DNA of 64,000 nucleotides, taken from contig JBFLXM010000049.1 of assembly GCA_040757175.1 (NCBI GenBank), forward strand, positions 29,532 through 93,531. Reading direction: 5' to 3'. The notes under the pieces are model-generated. The model was not told the origin of the DNA and ran no database searches. It saw nothing but the letters and a program-made list of their open reading frames with translations. Position numbers and translations under genes: made by a program. Numbering within the stretch: the first letter of the stretch is position 1; the number at the start of each line of letters is the position of its first letter. This DNA is from Thermodesulfobacteriota bacterium (GTDB lineage: Bacteria > Desulfobacterota > Desulfobaccia > Desulfobaccales > 0-14-0-80-60-11). Shown here in pieces: positions 4,991-17,558 of the stretch.

Positions 4991-7900
4991 ATGGCCAGGG
5001 CGCAGATATTGGTGGCGGACAGCAATCCGGGTTTTGCCGTCGAACTGGCGGCGAACCTGAAGTCCTTGGGATACGCGGTGACGGGGGTGGTCTCCTCCCC
5101 GGAAGAGGCCTTGAAAAAGGCACAAGAGAAGCGGCCGGATTTGGTCCTGTTGGACTTGAAGTTGCTGGCAGACGGCCAAGAAGGGAAAGCCGCCGGCCAA
5201 CTCCGGAAGCGCTTGCATAATCTGGTCTATTTGGTGGAGGAGGCAGACCGTCAAACCTTGCAGCGGGCCAGGATTACCCACAGTTTCGATTACCTCCGGA
5301 AAGCCTACGATTCCCGGGAACTGGAAACCATCATCGAGATGGCCCTCTACCGGCGCAAGCTGGAGGGGGAGATAACCCGGGGCAAAGAGACACCCGGCAA
5401 GCCGGATGCGGGGATGAAGGCAGCCGCGTCGGCACTGCAGAGCGAGATCCACCGCCATCAAAGCCTGGAAGAGGCCCTGCAGGCCGAGAGGCAAAAACTC
5501 TATCATCTTCTGGATACCCTGCCGTCCTATATTGTCCTGCTGGCTCCGGACTACTCCGTGCCTTTCGCCAACCGGGAGTTCATCAAACGCTTCGGTGCGC
5601 CGGAGGGCCGGAAGTGCTACGAGTTCCTGTTTGGCCGCACCTCTCCTTGTCCGGATTGCGAAACCTATAAGGTGCTGCAGACCAATGCCCCCCTTGAATG
5701 GGAGTGGACCGGCCCTGATGGCTGCAACTACCAGATCTATGACTTTCCTTTTCCGGACACTGACGGCTCGCCCCTGATTTTAGAGATGGGGGTGGACGTC
5801 ACCGTCCTCAAGGAGAAGGAGGCGCAAATCCAGAGGGCCAATCGGGCCCTCCGGACTCTGAGCAGTGTCAACCAGGCAGTAGTGCGGGCGCATACGGAGG
5901 CGGAACTGCTGGAAGACGTCTGCCGCGTGGTGGCGGCGGAGGGAGGCTACCGCCTGGCCTGGATCGGCTACGCCGAGAACGACCGGGCAAAGACGGTGCG
6001 CCCCCTGGCCCAGGCCGGTTATGAGGAAGGATATCTGGAGACCTTGAAGATGACCTGGGCGGATCAGAAAAGGGGCCGGGGGCCCACGGGCACGGCCATC
6101 CGCACCGGCCAACCCACCCTGGCCCGGAACATCCTCACCGATCCCCACTTTGCTCCATGGCGGCGGCAAGCCAGCAAGCGGGGCTACGCCTCCTCCCTGG
6201 CTCTCCCCCTTTTAGCAAACGGCGTGGCTTTCGGAGCCTTGAATATCTACGCTGGGGAAGCGGACGCGTTTGACACCGCCGAGGTGCAACTCTTATCAGA
6301 CCTGGCCGGGGATGTTTCCTTCGGGATTATGGCCTTGAGGGGCAGGGAGGAGCGGCGGCAGATGGCCGCGGCCCTGCGCCGCTCTTACGAAGAATTGGAA
6401 GCCCGGGTGCAGGACCGGACCCAGGAGTTGGCCCAATCAAACGCCGCCTTGCAGACCGAGATCGCGGAGCGCCTCTGGTCGGAGAAAAGGCTCCGGGAAA
6501 GCGAAGAACGCTACCGCCGCCTGGTGGACCTCTCCCCGGACGCCATTGCCGTGCAGAGCCAGAGCCGCTATCTGTTCATCAATCCCGCGGGCGCGCAGCT
6601 CTTCGGCGCGGCCAGCCCTCAGGAAATGGTGGGCAAAGCGGTCCCGGACATGATCCATCCGGATTTTCGGCAATTTGTCACCGAACACATCTGCAGGATC
6701 AACGCCGAAGGCGCGAAGACCGACCTCCAGGAAATCAAAATTTTGCGTCTGGACGGCCGGGTGGTGGACGTGGAAGCCTCCGGGGTGGGTATTAATTATC
6801 AGGGGCAGCCCGCGGTCCAGGTGATGATGCGGGATATCACCCGGCGCAAGGAGATGGAGCGGCGGCTGGAGCACCAGGCCTCCTTCCCCCGGCTGAACCC
6901 CAATCCCGTCCTGGAAGCGGACCTTTCCGGGAACATCACTTATGCCAACGCGGCCACGTTTTCTGCCCTGAGAAAGCAGGGTCTGGAGAACCAGACAAAC
7001 GCCTTCCTGCCCCAGGACCTGGATGAGATTGTTAAGACCGCGACCAAGACGGGGGAGACGATATTTAGCCGGGAAGTGGAAATAAACGGCGCATATTTTG
7101 TGGAGACGGTTTCTTTCCCCAAAGAGTTCGGGACCATCCGCATCTATGCCCGGGACATCACCCAGCAGAAGCGGGCGGAACTGGAGCGTCAGGAAACCCT
7201 GGACAAGTTGCAGGTGAGTGAGGAGGAACTGCAGGCTACGGTGGAGGAACTCCAGGCGCAGACCGAGGAACTTCAGAGTCAGTCTGAAGAACTCCTGGCG
7301 ACCAACCAACAACTGCATGAAGCCCTCGCCGCCCTCCGGGAGAGCCGGGAGGATCTGAACCGGGCCCAGGCCGTGGCCCATACCGGCAGTTGGCGGCTGG
7401 ACGTGCGGAAAAACGAGCTGCTGTGGTCCGACGAAACCTTCCGGATTTTTGGGATTAAGCAGGGAACGCCGCTGTCCTATGAGTCGTTCCTGGCCGCGGT
7501 GCACCCGGAGGATCGGGAGTACGTGGACCGGCAGTGGCTGGCAGCCCTCCGGGGAGAGCCCTACGACATCGAACACCGCATCATCGCGGGGGACACGATG
7601 AAATGGGTCCGGGAGAGGGCCGAACTGGAGTTCGACCACCAAGAGCAGCTCATGGGTGGTTTTGGAACGGTTCAGGACATTACGGAACGCAAAGAAGCGG
7701 ACACGACCCTCCAGGCCTCCAGGGATTTCCTGGAAATCGCCAACCGCCACACCGAAATGGCGCCCCTGCTCCAGGACTATGTGACCGCCATCAAAGAACA
7801 CACCGGCTGCGAGGCGGTGGCCATCCGCATCCTGGATGAGGGGGGAAGGATCCCTTATGAGGCCTATGAAGGCTTTCCCCCAGAGTTCATCGCCTGTGAA

Positions 7901-9955
7901 AGTCTTCTGTCCCTAGACTCAGACCGCTGCCTGTGCATTAACGTTTGCAAGGGGGCCGTAGCTCAGGATTTGCCCTACTACACCCCCGGCTCCTCCTGTT
8001 ATATCAACAGTCTTTCCCACCTTTTGGCCACGGCCTCCCCGGGACTGCTGGGCGAAACCCGCAACGTCTGCCTCCGGTTTGGTTATGAGTCGGTGGCCCT
8101 GATTCCCATTGTTTTTGGGGGAAGCATCTTGGGGCTGATCCACCTGGCCGACCGCCGGGAGAACATGGCGCCTCTGAGTCTGGTGGCGCGGCTGGAAAGA
8201 ATCGGCCTACAGCTAGGCACGGCCATCAACCGGGTGCGCGCGGAAGAGGCATGGCGCCGGGCCTTGGCTGAGTCCCGGCGGCGCCAGGCGGAGATTTCCG
8301 CCCTGCTCCAGGCCACCCGGGCGGTGCTGGAGGCCGGCACCTTCCTGGAACTCTCCCGCTCCATCTATGGTTCCTGCAAGGAATTGATCGGGGCCTCTTC
8401 CGGTTACATCGCCCTCCTTACCGCCGACGGCCAGGAGAACGAAGTCCTTTTTCTGGACCCCGGCGGGCAGGCCTGCCAGGTGGACCCCTCTCTGCCCATG
8501 CCGGTGAGGGGCCTGCGGGCGGAGGCCTGCCGCACCGGCAGGACGGTGTACCACAATGATTTCTCCGGCAGCGATTACGCCCAACTTCTGCCCCCGGGCC
8601 ACGTGGGCCTGGACAATGTCCTCTTCGCCCCCCTGGTGGTGAAAGGCAAGGTTGTGGGGCTCCTGGGCCTGGGCAACAAACCCGGGGGCTACACGGCCAA
8701 CGACGCCCGCCTGGTTGCCGGGTTCGGGGAGCTGGCGGCCATGGCCCTGGTCAACAACCGGGCCGAAGAAGAGCGGGAAAGGCTGATCCAGGAGTTGGAG
8801 ACGGAGCGGGCCCGGCTGCAGGCCATCATCGCCAGTGCGCCGGAGGCCATCGTCGTGGCCGATGCCGGCGGACGCATGGTCATGGCCAATCCCGCGGCGG
8901 AACGGCTTTACTACCAGCCTTTTGAGGAGGGTGAAGGCCTGGAAGGCTGCGCCTTGTTCCAGCTCTGCCATGGGGACGGCTCCACCTGTGTCCCCGGCAA
9001 TCAGCCGCTGCTCCGTTCGGCCACGGCCGGGGAGACCCACCGCAACCTGGAGATGATCCTCACCTGGCCCGACGGCCAGCGCCGGGATCTGCTGGTGAAC
9101 ACCGCGCCCCTCAAAGACCACCTGGGCCGCAGCAGCGGCGCGGTGGGCCTCTTCCAGGACATTACCCAGCGGAAACAGGTGGAGGAGAAAATCCGGAATC
9201 TAAACGCCGAACTCGGAGACCGCATCCGGGAAGTCAGTGAACGCACCCTGCAATTGGAAGCCGCCAACAAGGAACTGGAAGCCTTTTCCTATTCCGTGTC
9301 CCACGACCTGCGCTCCCCCCTGCGGGCCATCGAGGGCTTTGCCCGCATCCTCCTGGAAGAACATGGGGCCGAATTGGCGGAGGAAGCCTTGCGCCTGCTC
9401 AACGTGATTCGCAGCAACACCCTCATTATGGGGGAATTGATCGACGACCTCCTGGCCCTTTCCCGCTTGGGACGCCAGGAAATAAAGGCCCAAAAAATCG
9501 ATCCGGGGGGCCTGGTCACTTCGGTCTTCGGGGAACTGCGGGCCCAGGCTCCGGAACGGCAAATGCAGCTCATTTTGAACCCCCTGCCTCCGATCTACGG
9601 TGACCGCTCCCTGATCAATCAGGTCCTGGTAAATCTATTGGGGAACGCCGTCAAATTCACCGAATCCAGGGAAAAGACCATAATTGAGGTGGGTGGATGG
9701 ACAGAAGGCAAAGAGGATATATACTTTGTTAAAGATAACGGGGTAGGCTTTGATATGCGTTATGTGGATAAAATTTTCGGGGTTTTCCAGCGTCTGCACC
9801 GGAGGGAGGACTTTGACGGCACCGGCGTGGGCCTGGCCATTGTCCAGCGCATTATCAACCGGCACGGAGGCCGGGTCTGGGCCACCGGCAAGGTGGACCG
9901 CGGGGCTACTTTTTATTTTGCCCTGCCGCACAAAGGAGAAGATAGTGATAAATAA
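4991..9955 (+). CDS. Giant hybrid sensor histidine kinase: N-terminal REC, multiple PAS and GAF domains, Q/E-rich coiled coil, HisKA, HATPase_c
   Basis: 1654 aa. REC (ILVAD...DLVLLDLKL). PAS with [18 protein letters not shown] segments. [24 protein letters not shown] coiled coil. H-box SHDLRSPL. G-boxes DNGVGF and GTGVGLAIV. Confidence 0.9.
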
Positions 9956-10392: not shown

Positions 10393-10427
10393 GCAGTAAG
10401 CAGTAAGCAGTGAGCAGTGAGCAGATA
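10393..10427. repeat. Period-7 tandem array GCAGTAA x2, GCAGTGA x2, GCAGATA
   Basis: Direct reading. Begins 2 nt after the stop at 10391. The track's GTG start 10410 lies inside it. Confidence 0.9.
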
Positions 10428-10496
10428 ATTGGCACTCTAAGCTCTGGCTCCAAACTGCTCGCTGCTTACAGTTCACAATTTCAGGGTGAACCGGAC

Positions 10497-11969
10497 TTGA
10501 GAAAACCATTAGATATTTTGCTGCTGGAAGACATGGAGAGCGATGCGGAGCTGATGGCATACGAGCTCCGCAAGGCCAAGATCGACTTCACCTTCAGGCG
10601 GGTGGATACCCGGGACGGTTTCCTCCACGAGCTGCACCAACGTCTCCCCGACCTGATCCTGGCCGACCATAGCCTGCCCTCCTTTGACGGCCTCACCGCC
10701 CTAAAAATGGTGGAGAAGATCTGCCCGGAGACGCCCTTTATCTTTGTCTCCGGGGCCATGGGCGAAGAAGTGGCCGTGGACACCCTGAAACGGGGAGCCA
10801 CGGATTATGTCCTGAAGCAAAACCTGGCCCGGTTGGGTGCGGCCGTGGAACGGGCCTTGCGGGAAGCGGAAGAACGGCGGCAACGCCGCCAGGCTGAAGA
10901 AATGCTCCGGGAGAGTGAGGAGAAGTTTCGCACCCTGTTCCAAACCGCGGGCAGCTTCATCGGCGTGGCGACCCCGGAAGGACGGCTTTTGGAGATTAAC
11001 CCGGAGGCCGAACGGCTCACCGGCTGGCGGCGGGAGGAGGTCCTGGGAGAGGGTTTTTTAGAATTGTTTATACCGGAGGCCTATAAAGAGGCGGTAAGGG
11101 CGGACATGGAAAAGGTGCTGGCCGGAGAAGAGACCCGGGGCATGGAAATGCCCCTCAAGCTGCGGGATGGCGGGGAGCGCCCGTTTCTCTGGAATGTCAA
11201 TCGCTTATTGGGGAAGGAGGGTCAGGTCCTGGGCGTTATTGCCGTGGGGCAGGACATCACCCAAAGGAAACGGGCCGAAGAAGAGTTGCGGGAATCGGCG
11301 ACGAAACTGCGCTTCCTGACTTCCCAGATCCTGACCGCCCAGGAGAACGAACGCAAGCGCATCTCCAGGGAACTCCACGACGAATTGGGCCAAAGCCTGA
11401 CGATCCTGAAACTGAGCCTGCGGGCTGCGGGCAAGCAATTGCTGGAGCCGGTGGAGGTTAAGGAAGAATTGGGTGGTCTGTCCCTCTATTTGGATGAAGT
11501 CATCGACAAAGTACGCCGCCTCTCCCGGGCCCTGTGCCCGGCCATCCTGGAGGATTTGGGCCTGGTGCCGGCCCTGCAATACCTGATCAATGAATTCAGC
11601 AAATACTATGAGATTAACCACCACTTCGGTCTTGAAGATCTGGACCATCTGTTCGATAAGGAGGCCCAGATCATCATTTTCCGAATCTTCCAGGAAGCCC
11701 TGACCAACATCGCCAAACACGCCCGGGCCACCAAGGTGCGTGTGGCCGTCCAGGAATCTGCGGGGGTGGCCCTTTTGGAGGTGGAGGATAACGGCCAGGG
11801 GTTTGAGGTGCTCCAGACCCTGAGCCGCTCCTCCATGGACAAGGGTTTAGGGCTGGCTGCCCTGGATGAACGGGCCAAAATGCTGGGCGGCTCTCTGCGG
11901 ATCTGGAGTCAGAAGGGCCAGGGAACGCGCATCACTTGCGCCATTCCGGTTGGTCAAAAAAGCAATTAA
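10497..11969 (+). CDS. Hybrid REC-PAS-HisKA_3 histidine kinase (NarX/DegS class)
   Basis: REC-like ILLLEDMESDAEL...LILADHSLPSFDG. PAS. H-box RISRELHDELGQSL. HATPase DNGQGF and GLGLAAL. Start uncertain: TTG 10497 is proposed, and track GTG 10410 sits in the heptamer array. Confidence 0.8.
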   Translation: MRKPLDILLLEDMESDAELMAYELRKAKIDFTFRRVDTRDGFLHELHQRLPDLILADHSLPSFDGLTALKMVEKICPETPFIFVSGAMGEEVAVDTLKRGATDYVLKQNLARLGAAVERALREAEERRQRRQAEEMLRESEEKFRTLFQTAGSFIGVATPEGRLLEINPEAERLTGWRREEVLGEGFLELFIPEAYKEAVRADMEKVLAGEETRGMEMPLKLRDGGERPFLWNVNRLLGKEGQVLGVIAVGQDITQRKRAEEELRESATKLRFLTSQILTAQENERKRISRELHDELGQSLTILKLSLRAAGKQLLEPVEVKEELGGLSLYLDEVIDKVRRLSRALCPAILEDLGLVPALQYLINEFSKYYEINHHFGLEDLDHLFDKEAQIIIFRIFQEALTNIAKHARATKVRVAVQESAGVALLEVEDNGQGFEVLQTLSRSSMDKGLGLAALDERAKMLGGSLRIWSQKGQGTRITCAIPVGQKSN

Positions 11970-12030: not shown

Positions 12031-12702
12031 TTGGAACACTCTTATCGTATCGTTCTGGCCGATGACCATGCCATGTTCCGCCGGGGGGTAAAGAGAATTA
12101 TCCAGGAAAACCAAGAACTGGAAGTGGTGGGAGAGGCGGCTGATGGCCTGGAATTATTAGAAATTATCAAGAGATCTCCACCGCATATGGTGATCGCCGA
12201 CGTCTCCATGCCCAATCTTCGGGGGCTGGAGGCGACCCGGGAAATCAAAATGTCCTTCCCTGCCATCAAGGTCATCATCCTCACCATGCATAAAGACAAG
12301 GAGTATCTCTATCACGCCCTCGCGGCCGGGGCGGAGGGCTATTTGCTGAAAGAAGACGCCGATATCGAGTTGTTTTCCGCCATCAAGACCATCCGCCAGG
12401 GAGGGACCTATATTTCCCGCCTCCTGGCCCCCCAAATGACGGATATCTTTATGGAGCGGCAGCAGTTGCGGGAAAGGCAGGGCAGGTTGCCGGGGGAGCT
12501 TTTAAGCACCCGGGAAAGGGAGATCATTAAACTCATCGCCGAAGGCAAATCCAGCAGAGAGATTGCCGACCTCCTGTATATCAGTTCCCGGACGGTCCAG
12601 CACCACCGGGCCAATATCATGAGGAAACTGAACTTCAAGAAGACCGCAGACCTGGTGAAGTACGCCATTCAAAAGGGGTATACCTCCGCGGACGGCAGTT
12701 GA
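12031..12702 (+). CDS. NarL/FixJ-family response regulator (REC + LuxR-type HTH)
   Basis: IVLADDH, VIADVSMP, LSTREREIIKLIAEGKSSREIADLLYISSRTVQHHRANIMRKL. Confidence 0.9.
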   Translation: MEHSYRIVLADDHAMFRRGVKRIIQENQELEVVGEAADGLELLEIIKRSPPHMVIADVSMPNLRGLEATREIKMSFPAIKVIILTMHKDKEYLYHALAAGAEGYLLKEDADIELFSAIKTIRQGGTYISRLLAPQMTDIFMERQQLRERQGRLPGELLSTREREIIKLIAEGKSSREIADLLYISSRTVQHHRANIMRKLNFKKTADLVKYAIQKGYTSADGS

Positions 12703-12746
12703 TCCTGGCGACGCCCCACTTATCTGTCTAATTCTTTTCCTACCAA

Positions 12747-12777
12747 ATAGGTAGTTTTACCTATGCCTAAATAGGTA
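12747..12777. promoter_or_regulatory. 31-bp heptamer operator candidate ATAGGTA-N4-TACCTAT-N6-ATAGGTA
   Basis: Direct reading. TACCTAT fits the NarL heptamer consensus TACYYMT. The same architecture recurs at 13801-13831. Confidence 0.55.
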
Positions 12778-13203
12778 TTACTGCTGATTTACTTTGCCCC
12801 CCGCAAAATAATAAATGTATCTTAGAGCCTGCTTCTGGCGGCGCCGCGGCTATGGCATTGCCTGGACTGGGCTCAAAGGATCCGGAAATGGGATGGCGCC
12901 ATAAAAAGGCAGACATGGCGGAGAGCAAAGAACTTCGGATTGTGGGGCTCCTGCCGTCGCGGCTTCATGACCGTTTATACGCGGCCCCCCTATCCTTTAG
13001 AAAAATCAAACTGGAGCTGGCTCTTCCCCCTTTGCGCACCGTTAAGTTGTCCTACCGGCAGTTGGGATCTTTCCAGGGAAGAAAGGTTTGGGAGAGCAGC
13101 CTGAGTTTTTCGTATTTTCATTAAACTTTTTGGTCTTGAAAGGATGAAAAAGACCAATATGTTTGATCAACATGTGCCTGCATGGATGCATGAGGAAAAA
13201 ACT

Positions 13204-13614
13204 ATGGGAAGGCCATATTCCGTAGTATTGGCTGATAGCCATGACATGGTCCGTCAGGAGGTCAGGAGAATTATTGAAACAATAGGAGATATCCAGGTAG
13301 TGGGAGAGGCCAGTGATGGATTTCAGCTTTTAGATGTTTTGAAAGCCACGGTTCCAGATATGGTGGTTGTTGATATTTCTATGCCAAGCCTTAGAGATAT
13401 TGAAGCGATTAGAAAAATAAGGGCGTTGTATAGCGATATCAAACTGTTGTTTTTATCGATGCATGAACGTAAGGAATACCTGAATTATGCCTTAGACTTA
13501 GGTGCTGATGGTTTTATTTGTAAACTAAACTTAGACATGGAGTTGTGTCCGGCAATAGGAAGGATACGTGGTGGAGAAGTATATATTTCACCACTTGTCT
13601 TAAAAGGATCATAA
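13204..13614 (+). CDS. REC-only paralogue of the NarL-type regulator (no HTH), in a clearly AT-richer segment
   Basis: YSVVLADSHDMVRQEVRRII...VVVDISMPSLRD...LFLSMHERKEYLNYAL aligns along its length with 12031..12702 and stops where the linker/HTH would begin. Confidence 0.7.
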   Translation: MGRPYSVVLADSHDMVRQEVRRIIETIGDIQVVGEASDGFQLLDVLKATVPDMVVVDISMPSLRDIEAIRKIRALYSDIKLLFLSMHERKEYLNYALDLGADGFICKLNLDMELCPAIGRIRGGEVYISPLVLKGS

Positions 13615-13800
13615 AGTAATTGTTAATAACATTGCCGCATTTCAACCGGCAACCAAGGAGAGTGGCAAATATCCGCCATTGCCCTGGGAAGGGACGGCCG
13701 AGACAGCCCAGCGTTTTCTCCCAGCCTGTCCCAAAAAAGGTGAGCGTACATCGGCTCCTATCATTAGCCCGACAAATTTCTGCTCTGCCGGCGAATTCAG

Positions 13801-13831
13801 ATAGGCATTTTTACCTAGTCCCAAATAGGCA
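13801..13831. promoter_or_regulatory. Second copy of the 31-bp operator candidate ATAGGCA-N4-TACCTAG-N6-ATAGGCA
   Basis: Direct reading. Identical 4- and 6-nt spacings to 12747-12777. About 110 nt upstream of ATG 13942. Confidence 0.55.
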
Positions 13832-13941
13832 TTTTGGCCGATTGATTTTTCCTTTAAAAAAGGGTTGTATCGACTCTGCAGCAGTCTTCTAACCTGGTGA
13901 AAATGATATTTCACCGGCAGCGTTTAAGAGGAGATGTGATC

Positions 13942-15048
13942 ATGGCTACCTTCGAGATTCTGATGTTCGATGACGGCTCCTCCTTGTTTCGGACTTTGGC
14001 TTGGGTCTTGGATTACAAAGGCTTGGGGGTGAAGACGGCCTCAACCCCGGAGGCCGCCCTGGAGTTAATGGTCACCAAAAATTATGATCTGCTCATCGCC
14101 AAACTGAGCATGGATGGGAATGGCAGCCTGGAGGTCATCAAACGGGCCCACAAGCTGAACCCGGAAACCCGGATCATGGTCGTGGGCGGTGACGGCCAGG
14201 TAGGTTTTCCCCTCGAGGCCTATCGTCTGAAAATCGATGATTATATTCTCCTGCCCTGCACGCCCGCGGCCTTGTGGCGGCGGGTGGCCGATTGTCTGGG
14301 GAGCCTGGAACCCCGGCGTCCGGAATCCGCATCCCAGGTGCGTTTGGCAGCCATCAATGAGCAGGTTTTAAACAAGCTGGCCATCATGTTTCATGATCTG
14401 CGCAGTTCCATGGTTTCAAGCTCCGCGGCTTTAAAGCTTTTACTCCGGGGCGACTATGGAGGTATGGACGAGCCGGTGGCCCAAAAGATTCGGGAAATCT
14501 CCTCCCGGATCAAAAAAATAGTCGGCGTCAGCGAGGAATTCATGGCCCAGGTCCTGTCCGGCAATGGTGAAGTCGCCTTGGGTCCCGAGTTGCTGGATTT
14601 AAAACAGGAGATCGTCGATCCGGTGCTGGATGAGTTCGCCGAAGAAATCCAGGACCATGGCATCATCATAGATAACCGTCTGGCAGCCCAACGCACGGCC
14701 GCCATCCCCATCAGAGGCAGCAAATTGTACCTGAAAAGCGTCTTTCGCAATCTCTTGAGCAACGGCATCAGACATGGCGGCAATGGCAGCACCATCGTCA
14801 TCGATTTGGAAGAACAGGGGGATAATTTCCGTCTGAAAGTCTGCAACAGCAGCTCTTTTGTGCCCGAAGAGAACCGGTCGATGCTGTTCTCCCATAACAG
14901 GCGTCCGGGTAAAGGGGGCAAGCCCCGGGGGCAGGGCCTGGGGATCGGCCTCCACCTCGTCAAGGGCATCATCAAGGAACACGGCGGAGATTTATTGCAC
15001 GAGGCCAAAAACCACGGGTCCGATTACGTGATTACCTTGCCTCATTAA
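13942..15048 (+). CDS. Histidine kinase with an N-terminal receiver-like domain that appears to lack the phospho-acceptor Asp
   Basis: Receiver-like FEILMFDDG...DLLIAKLSM (AK where D is expected). H-box FHDLRSSM. HATPase NLLSNGIRHG and GQGLGIGLHLV. GAGGAG RBS before ATG 13942, inside track ORF 13897..15048. Confidence 0.8.
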   Translation: MATFEILMFDDGSSLFRTLAWVLDYKGLGVKTASTPEAALELMVTKNYDLLIAKLSMDGNGSLEVIKRAHKLNPETRIMVVGGDGQVGFPLEAYRLKIDDYILLPCTPAALWRRVADCLGSLEPRRPESASQVRLAAINEQVLNKLAIMFHDLRSSMVSSSAALKLLLRGDYGGMDEPVAQKIREISSRIKKIVGVSEEFMAQVLSGNGEVALGPELLDLKQEIVDPVLDEFAEEIQDHGIIIDNRLAAQRTAAIPIRGSKLYLKSVFRNLLSNGIRHGGNGSTIVIDLEEQGDNFRLKVCNSSSFVPEENRSMLFSHNRRPGKGGKPRGQGLGIGLHLVKGIIKEHGGDLLHEAKNHGSDYVITLPH

Positions 15049-15140: not shown

Positions 15141-17558
15141 TTATTGAGAAATACCTGGGGGAGACAGGGCCTGGAGCTTGCTTTCCAGGGCCTGCCGCGC
15201 CGGGGCCGGCAAATCCCGGCGCGCCAGTCCCCGGCGGTAGACCTGCCTGGCCTCCTCCCCTTTTCCTTGTTCCTGGAAAATCTCCCCCAAGAGAAAATAG
15301 GCCGGCGCAAAGGCTGGCTGCTCCGCCAGCAGCCGGCGCAATTCCGGGATTGCCGCCTGCAAGTCCCCCTTTTGCCGCTGGTAGAAGGCCAGGGTGTAGG
15401 CGTACTTGGGCTGGTCCTGCCGGAGTTTCCGGGCCTTTGCCAGCCAAAGCAAGGCCTCGGTTAAGCGGTCCGGGGCCAGGAGCACCCCCAGGTTATAGGC
15501 GGCTGCAGCCAATTCCGGGTCCGCTTTAAGGGCCGACCGCAGAGCCTGTTCCGCGGCCCTTTGATCTCCCTTTTCCGCCAGCACCAATCCCAAGTTGAAA
15601 TTGGCCGGAGCATTTTCTGGGTCGAGGCGGAGGGCCCGGCGCAGGGAGGCCTCCGCTTCCCCGGCCTGCCCCATCCTGGCCTGGGCAATGGAGCCGTTGA
15701 CCAGCGGCATAACCGCATCCGGCCGCAGGCGGGAGGCGGTGGTGAACGCGGCCAGGGCCAGGCCGGGTTCTCTCCGGTCCAGATAATAGTTTCCCAGGTT
15801 GTAGTGGGAGGCCCAATCATCAGGACGTGCGGTCAGGGAGGCCAGGAGTTCCCGGTCGGCCTTTTCCAGCCGCAACTGCTCCGCGGCGCTAAGCAATTCT
15901 CGGGGATAGGCCGCCAGGGTGCGGGCGGCCCGGATGCGCACCAGGCGGTAATCATCCCCCACCGCGGCGAGCAAGGCGTCCCGGGCCTCCGGAGGGTAAT
16001 GCCCCTCCAGACCCGCGGCCGCGGCTCCCCGCACCAGGGGCGAGGCGTCTTTTAGAGCCTGAGCCAGGGCCGGCCACTTGCGGGGATCGCCACAGGGAGC
16101 CAGGAGCCGGATCAGACCGGCGGCGTAAACTTCGTCCCGGGCGGGGTCATTAATATACTGCAAAATCTCCGGCAACCGGGACCAATCCCGCCGCCGGGCC
16201 GCGGCCAGCAGGGCCGCCCGCCGCAACACCTCTTTCTGGTAATCCCGCTGCTGCCATTGCCGCACCTGTTGATCCGCCCAGGCCGCGTCCTTATCCCGAT
16301 GGCAGAGGTTGCAGGCGTTGGGCGACTGAAACGCCAGGGTGGCCGCGGGCGCGGGCGGACGCAGGGAGTGGTCGCTCCGGCGCATGCGCGCGAACTCGGT
16401 TAAGGGCATATGGCAGGAGATGCACTGGGGCGCGCCCGGTTTATCCGGCGGATGGCGGGTATGCGCGGCGGCGTTGGCCACTCTCTGCCCGTGGCAGGGG
16501 AGGCAGGCCCGGTTGGCCTTCTCCGGGGCTTGGAAGCGGTAGCGGCCGCTGGAGGTGTGGCAGTGGAGGCAGGATAACTTGCCCGATTTGACACAGGGGC
16601 TGGTGAGCCAGAGGGTCAGGGTAAAATTCTCCCCCAAATCCCGGGCGTCCGGGTAAAAGTCCGCATCCTCCAGGGTGACGAGGTCATAGTGGTCGAAGAA
16701 GCGCTCCCCCGGAGTATAGGCGGGGGTCAGGGGGATCATCTTGGCGTGGCAGGGGGAGCAGGTGTCGTTATGCTGGGCAATGGTGAATTTTTTGCTGCTG
16801 ATGATTTTCAGGTCCGGGGGCACGGTCCCCGGGGGCGCCTCCCGGCAGATCCGGTTGTGTTCCGCTCCCGGGCCGTGGCAGGTCTCGCAGTTGATGCCCG
16901 GCTCGGTCCAGGCGGAGTGATAAGTGTCGGTCTGAAGATCGTAGTTGGAGGAAAACTGGCTGACGTGGCAACCATAGCAGGCGGTGTTGAAGGTGAGTAG
17001 GGGGTCCTGCCAGTAAAGCGGTTTCTCCCGCTGTACGGTTCCCAGGTGGCGCAGCATGCTCCGGGTGGTGTCGAACCATTTTTTCTTCCGCACGTCGTAG
17101 GCCACCGGCAGAACCTGGAGACGGCCCTTGTCCATGGGGGTTAAGAAATAATAGACATTCTTGCCCCCCAGGGCCTGGGCCATCCGGTATTTCCTTTCCC
17201 CCTGGGGGCCATGCTCCAGTACCCAGCCGGCGCCCTGATCGCTGACGGCCCGGTAGCGATATTCCTTTATGTGAATAGGGTCTGGGGCGAAGGTGATCCT
17301 GGTTTCCAGGAACTCCGGGGTCACGGGTTGCATGGCCAGGCCGTGGTGGGAGGTGGACCAGAGCTTATAAAATTTTTCGTGGCACTCCCGGCAACTGGCG
17401 GCCCCGGCAAAGCCGCGGCCCGGGGCGGCCGCAGGCGCACCCCGGGGGCCCGGGGCCGGGGTCCCGGGCCACAGCAGCCAGATCCCTGATAGGGCCAGGA
17501 CAAGGCCCGACCCCATTGCCACCCCTAGCAGAACCTTGCGGAGATTGGCGGGGCTCAC
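15141..17558 (-). CDS. Membrane-anchored octahaem cytochrome c fused to HEAT-like and TPR repeats
   Basis: Eight CxxCH motifs: CRECH, CYGCH, CETCH, CSPCH, CLHCH, CLPCH, CISCH, CNLCH. N-terminal TM. C-terminal half is HEAT/TPR-like. GTG start overlaps the upstream stop (GTGA). Confidence 0.85.
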   Translation of the reverse strand: MSPANLRKVLLGVAMGSGLVLALSGIWLLWPGTPAPGPRGAPAAAPGRGFAGAASCRECHEKFYKLWSTSHHGLAMQPVTPEFLETRITFAPDPIHIKEYRYRAVSDQGAGWVLEHGPQGERKYRMAQALGGKNVYYFLTPMDKGRLQVLPVAYDVRKKKWFDTTRSMLRHLGTVQREKPLYWQDPLLTFNTACYGCHVSQFSSNYDLQTDTYHSAWTEPGINCETCHGPGAEHNRICREAPPGTVPPDLKIISSKKFTIAQHNDTCSPCHAKMIPLTPAYTPGERFFDHYDLVTLEDADFYPDARDLGENFTLTLWLTSPCVKSGKLSCLHCHTSSGRYRFQAPEKANRACLPCHGQRVANAAAHTRHPPDKPGAPQCISCHMPLTEFARMRRSDHSLRPPAPAATLAFQSPNACNLCHRDKDAAWADQQVRQWQQRDYQKEVLRRAALLAAARRRDWSRLPEILQYINDPARDEVYAAGLIRLLAPCGDPRKWPALAQALKDASPLVRGAAAAGLEGHYPPEARDALLAAVGDDYRLVRIRAARTLAAYPRELLSAAEQLRLEKADRELLASLTARPDDWASHYNLGNYYLDRREPGLALAAFTTASRLRPDAVMPLVNGSIAQARMGQAGEAEASLRRALRLDPENAPANFNLGLVLAEKGDQRAAEQALRSALKADPELAAAAYNLGVLLAPDRLTEALLWLAKARKLRQDQPKYAYTLAFYQRQKGDLQAAIPELRRLLAEQPAFAPAYFLLGEIFQEQGKGEEARQVYRRGLARRDLPAPARQALESKLQALSPPGISQ

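Follow-up and report, generated by a model that had tools for sequence, protein, structure and literature searches.

Two conserved 42-bp, four-part sites, probable operators, downstream of a NarL/FixJ-type response regulator gene in a Thermodesulfobacteriota bacterium

A repeated motif near a NarL/FixJ-type response regulator gene was analyzed in a 64,000-nt stretch (the window) of contig JBFLXM010000049.1 from a Thermodesulfobacteriota bacterium of the Desulfobaccales; all coordinates given here are positions within this window. The regulator gene (12031..12702, forward strand, TTG start) encodes a REC domain (Pfam, 1.5e-26) and a GerE/LuxR helix-turn-helix (HTH) domain (3.3e-18), confirming the family that an initial annotation had assigned to the gene immediately upstream of the first copy of the motif. 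The wider gene context described there, in which the two copies bracket a REC-only gene and the second precedes a kinase gene at 13942, likewise matched the Pfam annotation. Both 31-bp strings on which that annotation was built were recovered exactly, with the same heptamer orientations and spacer lengths of 4 and 6 nt: 12747-12777 reads ATAGGTA-GTTT-TACCTAT-GCCTAA-ATAGGTA, and 13801-13831 reads ATAGGCA-TTTT-TACCTAG-TCCCAA-ATAGGCA.

In the translation of the regulator gene, Asp57 can be read as the phospho-acceptor and SSRTVQHHRANIMRKL as the recognition helix. Among solved structures, the regulator was closest to LiaR/VraR (4e-36; 5hev), followed by DevR, NarL and DesR. Comparison with NCBIfam reached no equivalog: the best score was for MctR (187 bits, cut-off 300), the NarL equivalog scored 133 bits (cut-off 250), and no LiaR model passed.

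Pairwise alignment of the two sites demonstrated that their likeness runs about 25 bp past the third heptamer. A fourth half-site, missed in the initial annotation, lies 4 bp after the third, and each 31-bp motif covers the three leftmost half-sites of a 42-bp operator (7+4+7+6+7+4+7). The operator comprises two 7-4-7 inverted repeats in tandem, their centres separated by 24 bp. Operator 1 (12747..12788, forward strand) consists of the half-sites h1 ATAGGTA (12747-12753), h2 TACCTAT (12758-12764), h3 ATAGGTA (12771-12777) and h4 TGCTGAT (12782-12788). Operator 2 (13801..13842, forward strand) consists of h1 ATAGGCA (13801-13807), h2 TACCTAG (13812-13818), h3 ATAGGCA (13825-13831) and h4 GGCCGAT (13836-13842). 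The consensus is (A)TAGGYA-nTTT-TRCCYA(T), N6, ATAGGYA-nTTn-TGCCnAT. The half-sites of each dyad are about one helical turn apart, twice per operator, and a REC and GerE regulator is genetically linked to both operators.

When the 64-kb window was searched with the composite pattern, allowing up to 3 mismatches, the two sites and the reverse reading of site 1 were found and nothing more, while none was expected by chance in 100 shuffles of the window. The bare heptamer ATAGGYA was not enriched (7 seen, 6.5 expected), and 5 of its 7 occurrences fall inside the two sites. A position weight matrix (PWM) built from the sites of other genomes gave 63.3 bits for operator 1 and 60.7 bits for operator 2, against a best score below -10 for any unrelated position in the window and a shuffle maximum of -1.

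Conservation of the sites was examined in syntenic loci obtained purely through regulator homologues of 93, 91, 85, 83 and 72% identity. Both operators were present at corresponding places in all of these Desulfobaccales loci; operator 1 holds its place in L001-L004, L007, L010 and L022, and operator 2 precedes the orthologous REC-HATPase kinase gene in all syntenic loci and in many others. The fourth element, which reads TGCTGAT, GGCCGAT, TGCCGAT or TGCCAAT, was found 4 bp past the third heptamer in every orthologous site. Each copy has also retained a characteristic sequence after the site, ...CAGTTTATTTC in the first copy and ...GCCGATTGACC in the second. In the group at about 72% identity (L007 and L010), both operators are retained 101-104 bp apart in a single intergenic region that contains neither the small open reading frame (ORF) nor the REC-only gene that separates them in the window. 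The same gene-free pair with this spacing was found in L007 (6821-6963), L020, L047, L095 and L105. Since each copy keeps site-specific downstream sequence, and since the group at about 72% has both sites without the low-GC (guanine plus cytosine) REC-only gene, the duplication of the site is old and independent of that gene. The small ORF and the REC-only gene would either have been inserted between pre-existing sites or have been lost from this group.

To place the motif more widely, a species-representative genome collection was scanned with TAGGYANTTTTRCCYANNNNNNNNTAGGY, a pattern that leaves the fourth element unconstrained. At least 119 stretches were found, compared with about 17 expected from our own uniform-composition arithmetic (18 effective bases in 2 x 596 Gb), and most of the matches listed came from Desulfobaccales or other Thermodesulfobacteriota. 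A sequence logo was made from the 101 non-redundant, non-Bacteroidota sites among the matches listed. Outside the search pattern, this logo is conserved at A29, in a T-rich second spacer and in T-G-C-C-n-A-T at positions 34-40. The fourth place is occupied by TGCC in 43 of the 101 sites and by TACC in 12, so that the three-heptamer description of the initial annotation was incomplete: 55 of 101 sites carry one or the other. The logo continues with TTGa at positions 40-43 and, 17 bp later, a T/A-rich block at positions 63-68; apart from this block, information is close to zero outside positions -1 to 45, and the flanks differ between loci. As in both window sites, the spacers are 4 and 6 bp in all 101 sites.

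Intergenic placement, defined as lying outside any stop-free frame of at least 150 codons, was observed for 93 of the 101 sites; four of the eight exceptions have no fourth half-site and resemble chance matches. Several genomes carry multiple sites among the matches listed: JBAVAG01 has six, spread over several contigs (L020 x2, L038, L069, L109, L117), the complete chromosome OY969108 has four at different genes (L032, L067, L105 x2), and JAGVAH01, the closest relative, has three. Because the sites are intergenic, keep a constant spacing to promoter-like elements and have unrelated flanks, they represent a regulon rather than a dispersed repeat. A dispersed repeat, a miniature inverted-repeat transposable element (MITE) or the end of a mobile element was rejected on the unrelated flanks, the 93 of 101 intergenic placements and the presence of only two copies in 64 kb. 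The initial annotation had considered that recurrence at scattered positions would speak against an operator; the motif did prove widespread, but its sites are intergenic and promoter-phased, with unrelated flanks, and its recurrence does not tell against an operator. Run on public genomes, the wider search indicated that the motif is not private to this locus and marks a multi-gene regulon in many genomes.

A near-perfect palindrome, TAGGTAATTTTACCTA, was also observed in Bacteroidota loci (L013, L014, L017, L025, L041, L042, L046, L052, L078, L082, L088, L092, L101, L104, L110, L112 and L127), where two or three tandem copies occur with the same 24-bp phasing as in the window. Some of these copies stand head-to-head, with the spacer TTTT followed by AAAA, and the genes downstream are small ORFs with no family match.

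To examine the linkage between operator and regulator independently of the motif, 80 metagenomic loci were chosen by regulator homology alone (59-87% identity), 64 of which have at least 450 bp of downstream sequence. With an operator called at 20 bits or more on the same strand, 54 of the 64 loci had at least one operator downstream of the regulator gene, and usually two, the first typically at about 40-400 bp and the second at about 260-1,170 bp. No operator was found upstream of the regulator gene in any of the 80 loci; the sole other same-strand match of at least 20 bits, at 20.6 bits, falls within the sequence that matches the regulator in L182, a 1,041-bp contig. The PWM scan of the window likewise revealed no autoregulatory site upstream of the kinase and regulator operon, and in six syntenic loci the only high-scoring sites were the two operators downstream of the regulator.

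The linkage was also apparent from the opposite direction. In about 35 loci derived from the pattern, a regulator 56-93% identical to that of the window lies directly upstream of the site. These motif-first loci span metagenome-assembled genomes (MAGs) of Nitrospirota (L074, L084), Desulfobacterales (L054, L064, L079, L097) and Pseudomonadota (L026), and the regulators share the recognition helix FIS-RTV-x-HHRANIM-KL across these phyla. In these distant lineages the site is followed by genes other than that for the REC-HATPase kinase, among them a Mo-oxidoreductase gene in L074 (a Nitrospirota MAG) and genes for 242-aa proteins of unknown function in L054, L097 and L064 (Desulfobacterales). 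Since the target changes in distant lineages while the pair persists, the site follows the regulator and not one particular target. This gene-operator linkage makes the 12031-12702 protein, which the initial annotation had proposed as the binder, by far the best candidate for that role.

Promoter-like elements were located next to both operators. Because a sigma-70 consensus scanner called no promoter at either site, their positions are those indicated by the family logo. Putative promoter 1 (forward strand) comprises a -35-like TTTACT (12788-12793), whose first base overlaps h4, a 17-bp spacer and an AT-rich -10-like ATAAAT (12811-12816). Putative promoter 2 (forward strand) comprises a -35-like TTGATT (13842-13847), a 17-bp spacer and a -10-like TTGTAT (13865-13870); its GGTTGTATCGAC block is kept in orthologous leaders, and the match of the -10-like hexamer to TATAAT is weak. 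If transcription starts about 7 nt past the -10-like block, near 12823 and 13877, the dyad centres would lie at about -44 and -68. A sigma-54 promoter (-24 GG and -12 GC, 10 bp apart) was considered and rejected, as the GG and GC of TAGGCAnnnnTGCC are 7 bp apart and neither site has a downstream match to TTGC.

Collectively, the comparative evidence supports an operator interpretation well and suggests the following model, which we regard as probable overall. The histidine kinase encoded at 10410-11969 would phosphorylate the regulator on Asp57, and the phosphorylated regulator would bind each 42-bp operator as a dimer of dimers, placing four HTH heads over the DNA and activating the adjacent weak sigma-70-type promoter. 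Operator 1 would drive a 78-aa ORF together with the receiver-only paralogue of the regulator, and operator 2 would drive the REC-HATPase kinase. The pathway would in this way induce an extra receiver and extra kinase components of its own phosphorelay, giving feedback, and the receiver-only paralogue could serve as an inducible phosphate sink. The sites themselves, their four parts, their conservation, their intergenic position near promoter-like elements and their linkage to the regulator gene are established by the comparisons; binding by this regulator, tetramer formation, activation, the promoter positions and the feedback roles are predicted. The view of the initial annotation that the repeats are protein-binding operators and not chance repeats was borne out by conservation and by the genome scan; its anatomy of three heptamers around a 7-6-7 pair was not.

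Several observations weigh against this model. The support for binding by the regulator is, across the whole regulator group, comparative. Ten of the 64 motif-blind loci have no operator, including L140, L141 and L145, whose regulators are 70-72% identical to that of the window, and most loci at or below 62% identity. The 24-bp spacing of the dyad centres corresponds to about 2.3 helical turns, which does not place two dimers on exactly the same face of the DNA. The promoter hexamers (TTTACT/ATAAAT and TTGATT/TTGTAT) are weak and were not called by the consensus scanner, and an operator that touches the -35 element could in principle repress. Among 24 screened 8-kb stretches of the Bacteroidota group, NarL-type regulators lie about 2 kb from the sites in two (L013 and L025) and are 36-38% identical to the window regulator; in L113 one of 36% identity lies about 5 kb away, and the other stretches screened have no NarL-type regulator. 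The near-identity of the Bacteroidota palindromes therefore indicates that other family members can read similar sequence.

The three operator-less loci L140, L141 and L145 have 3 kb of downstream sequence without an operator of at least 20 bits; a different gene order or a diverged site could explain this.

Occlusion of the -35 region would make the regulator a repressor acting in negative feedback. The overlap of the fourth half-site with the first base of the -35-like hexamer would fit such a role, and NarL represses some promoters (PMC4549865). However, the operator otherwise lies wholly upstream of the -35 element, from about -36 to -77, leaving the -35/-10 core and the start uncovered, and the hexamers are poor matches of the kind typical of activator-dependent promoters. 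The analogous LiaR, VraR and ComA sites also activate. We consider repression improbable and favor activation by the bound regulator.

The geometry of binding admits a second alternative, in which one dimer occupies the central TACCTAT-N6-ATAGGTA pair and h1 and h4 serve as auxiliary half-sites bound by monomers. The initial annotation had emphasized this 7-6-7 pair as one that may define a distinct regulator-specific operator. The h2-h3 orientation is that of the NarL 7-2-7 site of Escherichia coli, TACCCCT-AA-AGGGGTA (PMC4549865), the length of the N6 spacer is invariant in all sites seen, and NarL is reported to use single heptamers too (PMC4797271). In the 101-site logo, however, the N6 spacer carries 0.0-0.2 bits per position except for the AAA flanking h3, whereas the N4 spacers are T-rich, as they also are in the synteny-derived sites, for which no pattern selection was applied (GTTT, TTTT, CTTT and ATTT). 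The fourth half-site completes a second 7-4-7 dyad. In the head-to-head sites of L035, L056, L099 and several Bacteroidota loci, the second dyad has the spacer AAAn, so that the entire 7-4-7 unit is inverted along with its asymmetric spacer. Finally, half-site centres are 13 bp apart in the 7-6-7 pair, compared with 11 bp, or one helical turn, in 7-4-7. Because of the uninformative N6, the T-rich N4, the inversion of whole units and the 11-bp spacing, the 7-4-7 repeat is probably the dimer-binding unit, and the N6 pair is probably the junction between two dimer sites. A single dimer on the central pair is accordingly unlikely.

Equally unlikely, in our estimation, is binding by a different factor, such as another LuxR/GerE-family protein encoded elsewhere, with the adjacency of regulator and operator reflecting conserved gene order with the targets. 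Each genome encodes many NarL-family proteins, and both the scarcity and low identity of such regulators near the Bacteroidota sites and the 10 operator-less homologue loci are in keeping with this possibility. Against it, the pair is kept when the downstream gene changes (L074, L054, L097, L064, L026, L079 and L084), the operator in the 54 motif-blind loci always shares the strand of the regulator gene and follows it, and MAGs with sites at other genes almost always show the regulator locus too. These observations argue for the linked regulator as the binder.

Action of the inverted repeats as RNA, through alternative h1:h2 and h2:h3 hairpins forming a terminator or attenuator after the regulator gene, is very improbable: although site 1 RNA folds better than its shuffles (-17.8 kcal/mol, z = -4.3), a terminator-like hairpin with a 5-bp stem overlaps h1 at site 1 only and h1-5 co-varies with h2-2 (odds ratio 3.6, p = 0.005), site 2 shows no such advantage in folding (z = -1.2), the outermost pairing (-1:16) is not preserved, no Rfam match was found, and the sequence is conserved, between unrelated flanks, at a fixed spacing to promoter-like elements that would leave it untranscribed. 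The half-sites h1 and h3 co-vary alike (odds ratio 2.7) though they are direct repeats and unable to pair; the co-variation therefore points to classes of sites rather than to base pairing. An intrinsic terminator or cis-acting RNA was rejected on these grounds. The hairpin itself occupies 12735-12757, directly after the regulator gene, where TTTTCCTACC upstream of site 1 can pair with half-site 1 (CTACC/GGTAG), with TTTT following. It is weak and lineage-specific, being kept in L001-L003 and L022 but not in L004.

The arrangement proposed here was compared with known operator systems of the same regulator family. LiaR of Enterococcus faecalis recognizes a 16-bp core dyad that begins with T and ends with A, and an adjoining secondary site extends the footprint to 43 bp; it has been modelled as a tetramer with four HTH heads over about 42 nt, three of which are engaged at liaFSR, and it activates by recruiting RNA polymerase (PMC4482077). 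The window operators, with four conserved HTH-sized elements over about 42 bp, resemble those of LiaR and VraR, the closest solved homologues of the regulator, and the weakly engaged head at some LiaR promoters recalls the degenerate h4. However, TAGGTAnTTTTACCTA departs from the LiaR core T(X)4C(X)4G(X)4A: it has T1 and A16 but carries A at position 6 and T at position 11. Whereas the secondary LiaR sites are degenerate and occur on either side of the core, both window dyads are well defined and have a fixed 24-bp phasing. The window sensor is a cytoplasmic REC-PAS-HisKA_3 kinase without LiaF, and the regulator reached no equivalog; it is not an orthologue of LiaR or VraR working with LiaFS or VraS.

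A parallel that extends to the history of its recognition is provided by ComA of Bacillus subtilis, also a NarL-family regulator. ComA binds an RE1-N4-RE2 inverted repeat, and RE3, which has the orientation of RE1 and lies a few bp downstream, was first taken as an unexplained "half-site"; a degenerate RE4 was recognized later, and two dimers per promoter are both required for activation (PMC4797271). The window operators share the inverted h1-N4-h2 arrangement, with h3 identical to h1, and their fourth half-site came to light after a three-heptamer description much as RE4 did after RE3. They differ in the second pair of elements, which in ComA sites (RE3 and RE4) is directly repeated with 5 nt in between and here (h3 and h4) is inverted with 4 nt in between; the ComA hexamers TTGCGG and CCGCAA are also unrelated to ATAGGYA.

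NarL itself belongs to the same family and uses multiple heptamers per promoter. Its heptamer consensus is TACYYMT, to which the initial annotation had fitted TACCTAT; this holds at site 1, while the final base of TACCTAG at site 2 does not fit. The distinction drawn there from the NarL 7-2-7 arrangement was upheld, as the spacers here are 4 or 6 and never 2. The 7-4-7 heptamers are reversed (AKRRGTA-N4-TACYYMT) relative to 7-2-7 (TACYYMT-N2-AKRRGTA), and only the pair separated by 6 bp keeps the NarL orientation. Further leads come from the tandem boxes of DosR/DevR and from NreC and GerE, which have GG-containing half-sites in 14-20-bp dyads, often in tandem, with the proximal dyad at -35. 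The NreC palindrome TAGGG-N4-CCCTA (TAGG-N6-CCTA) may be compared with TAGG-N8-CCTA in the window, and the GerE half-site is TRGGY; TAGG is common to the NreC, GerE and window half-sites. No account of the motif turned up in the literature when the half-site strings were searched for in combination with "response regulator".

Upstream of the regulator gene lie a large hybrid kinase gene (4991-9955; Pfam) and a gene for a REC-PAS-HisKA_3-HATPase histidine kinase (10410..11969, forward strand; Pfam). In every syntenic locus the latter immediately precedes the regulator gene; from this adjacency and the HisKA_3/NarL-family pairing, its product is presumed to be the cognate kinase of the regulator.

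Downstream of operator 1, the initial annotation had listed a doubtful 90-aa ORF. Alignment with L001, L003 and L004 places its conserved start at ATG 12888, preceded by AAAGGA, within the mechanical ORF that begins at 12852, giving a probable 78-aa gene (12888..13124, forward strand). Substitutions in the C-terminal half are codon-periodic (0.16, 0.21 and 0.34 at codon positions 1, 2 and 3), and the product has no match in Pfam or NCBIfam. The ORF is thus probably genuine, the first gene after operator 1, and would share a transcript from promoter 1 with the REC-only gene.

The REC-only gene (13204..13614, forward strand; Pfam REC 9.5e-20) has a start at 13204 that we infer within a mechanical ORF from 13144. 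It encodes a protein with no HTH that is 48% identical to residues 1-132 of the regulator and retains the acceptor Asp. As the proposed target of operator 1, it may serve as a phosphate sink or as a competitor of the regulator. Its GC content is 0.40, compared with 0.54-0.56 in neighbouring genes; the orthologues have 0.40 in L001 (7114-7581) and 0.43 in L002 (7112-7582), and 0.48 and 0.50 in more distant relatives. Since the low GC content is common to close relatives and fades in distant ones, it is a feature of the lineage and not a sign of recent acquisition.

The proposed target of operator 2 is a 368-aa REC-HATPase kinase (13942..15048, forward strand; Pfam REC and HATPase_c), and a convergent multihaem/TPR gene follows on the reverse strand (15141-17558; Pfam). 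In the leader of the kinase gene (13865-13941), the block TTGTATCGAC-n-CTGCAGCAGTC and a segment TAACC...TCACC are shared by nine orthologous leaders, for which no covarying RNA structure was predicted. This block could be the region of the transcription start site or a second protein site.

Target genes were counted from the genes that follow operators among the matches listed. Genes for REC-HATPase kinases, or for short REC proteins of this kind, follow 45 sites, and REC-only paralogues of the regulator's receiver follow 19, at the first operator. NlpC/P60 peptidoglycan hydrolases follow six sites and a YkuD L,D-transpeptidase follows one; small secreted or membrane ORFs without a Pfam match, in several clusters that were not counted, complete the list. 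A 661-aa ORF in L035 and a 209-aa ORF in L075 were discarded as spurious, low-complexity targets. Because the same operator precedes NlpC/P60, YkuD and small secreted or membrane genes in relatives, the window sites would be the locus-proximal members of a regulon.

As a bacterial gene switch, the operator is well supported but of an ordinary kind; it would not surprise a specialist and reveals no new principle of gene regulation. What is new is an operator and regulon for an uncharacterised branch of the very well-known NarL/FixJ family. Tentatively, it may be possible to go further and see here an undescribed cross-phylum regulon (Desulfobaccales, Desulfobacterales, Nitrospirota and some Pseudomonadota MAGs) of a NarL/FixJ subfamily with the helix RTV-x-HHRANIM, in which a self-induced HTH-less receiver acting as sink or decoy and a REC-fused kinase form a feedback module, combined with control of NlpC/P60, YkuD and small envelope proteins. 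If so, this would be a cytoplasmically sensed (PAS) envelope-remodelling programme of anaerobes. The consensus and the target list are testable for a two-component family widespread in uncultured sulfate-reducing and syntrophic Thermodesulfobacteriota, for which we know of essentially no regulatory knowledge. The sites would also add, in silico, to the four-reading-head (dimer-of-dimers) type of operator known from experiments on LiaR and ComA, and they suggest that a response regulator may be wired to induce a truncated version of its own receiver.

In L044 (about 6180-6250), from a MAG labelled "delta proteobacterium", an operator-like site is followed directly by a series of GGGCAGA/GGGCAAA heptamer repeats.

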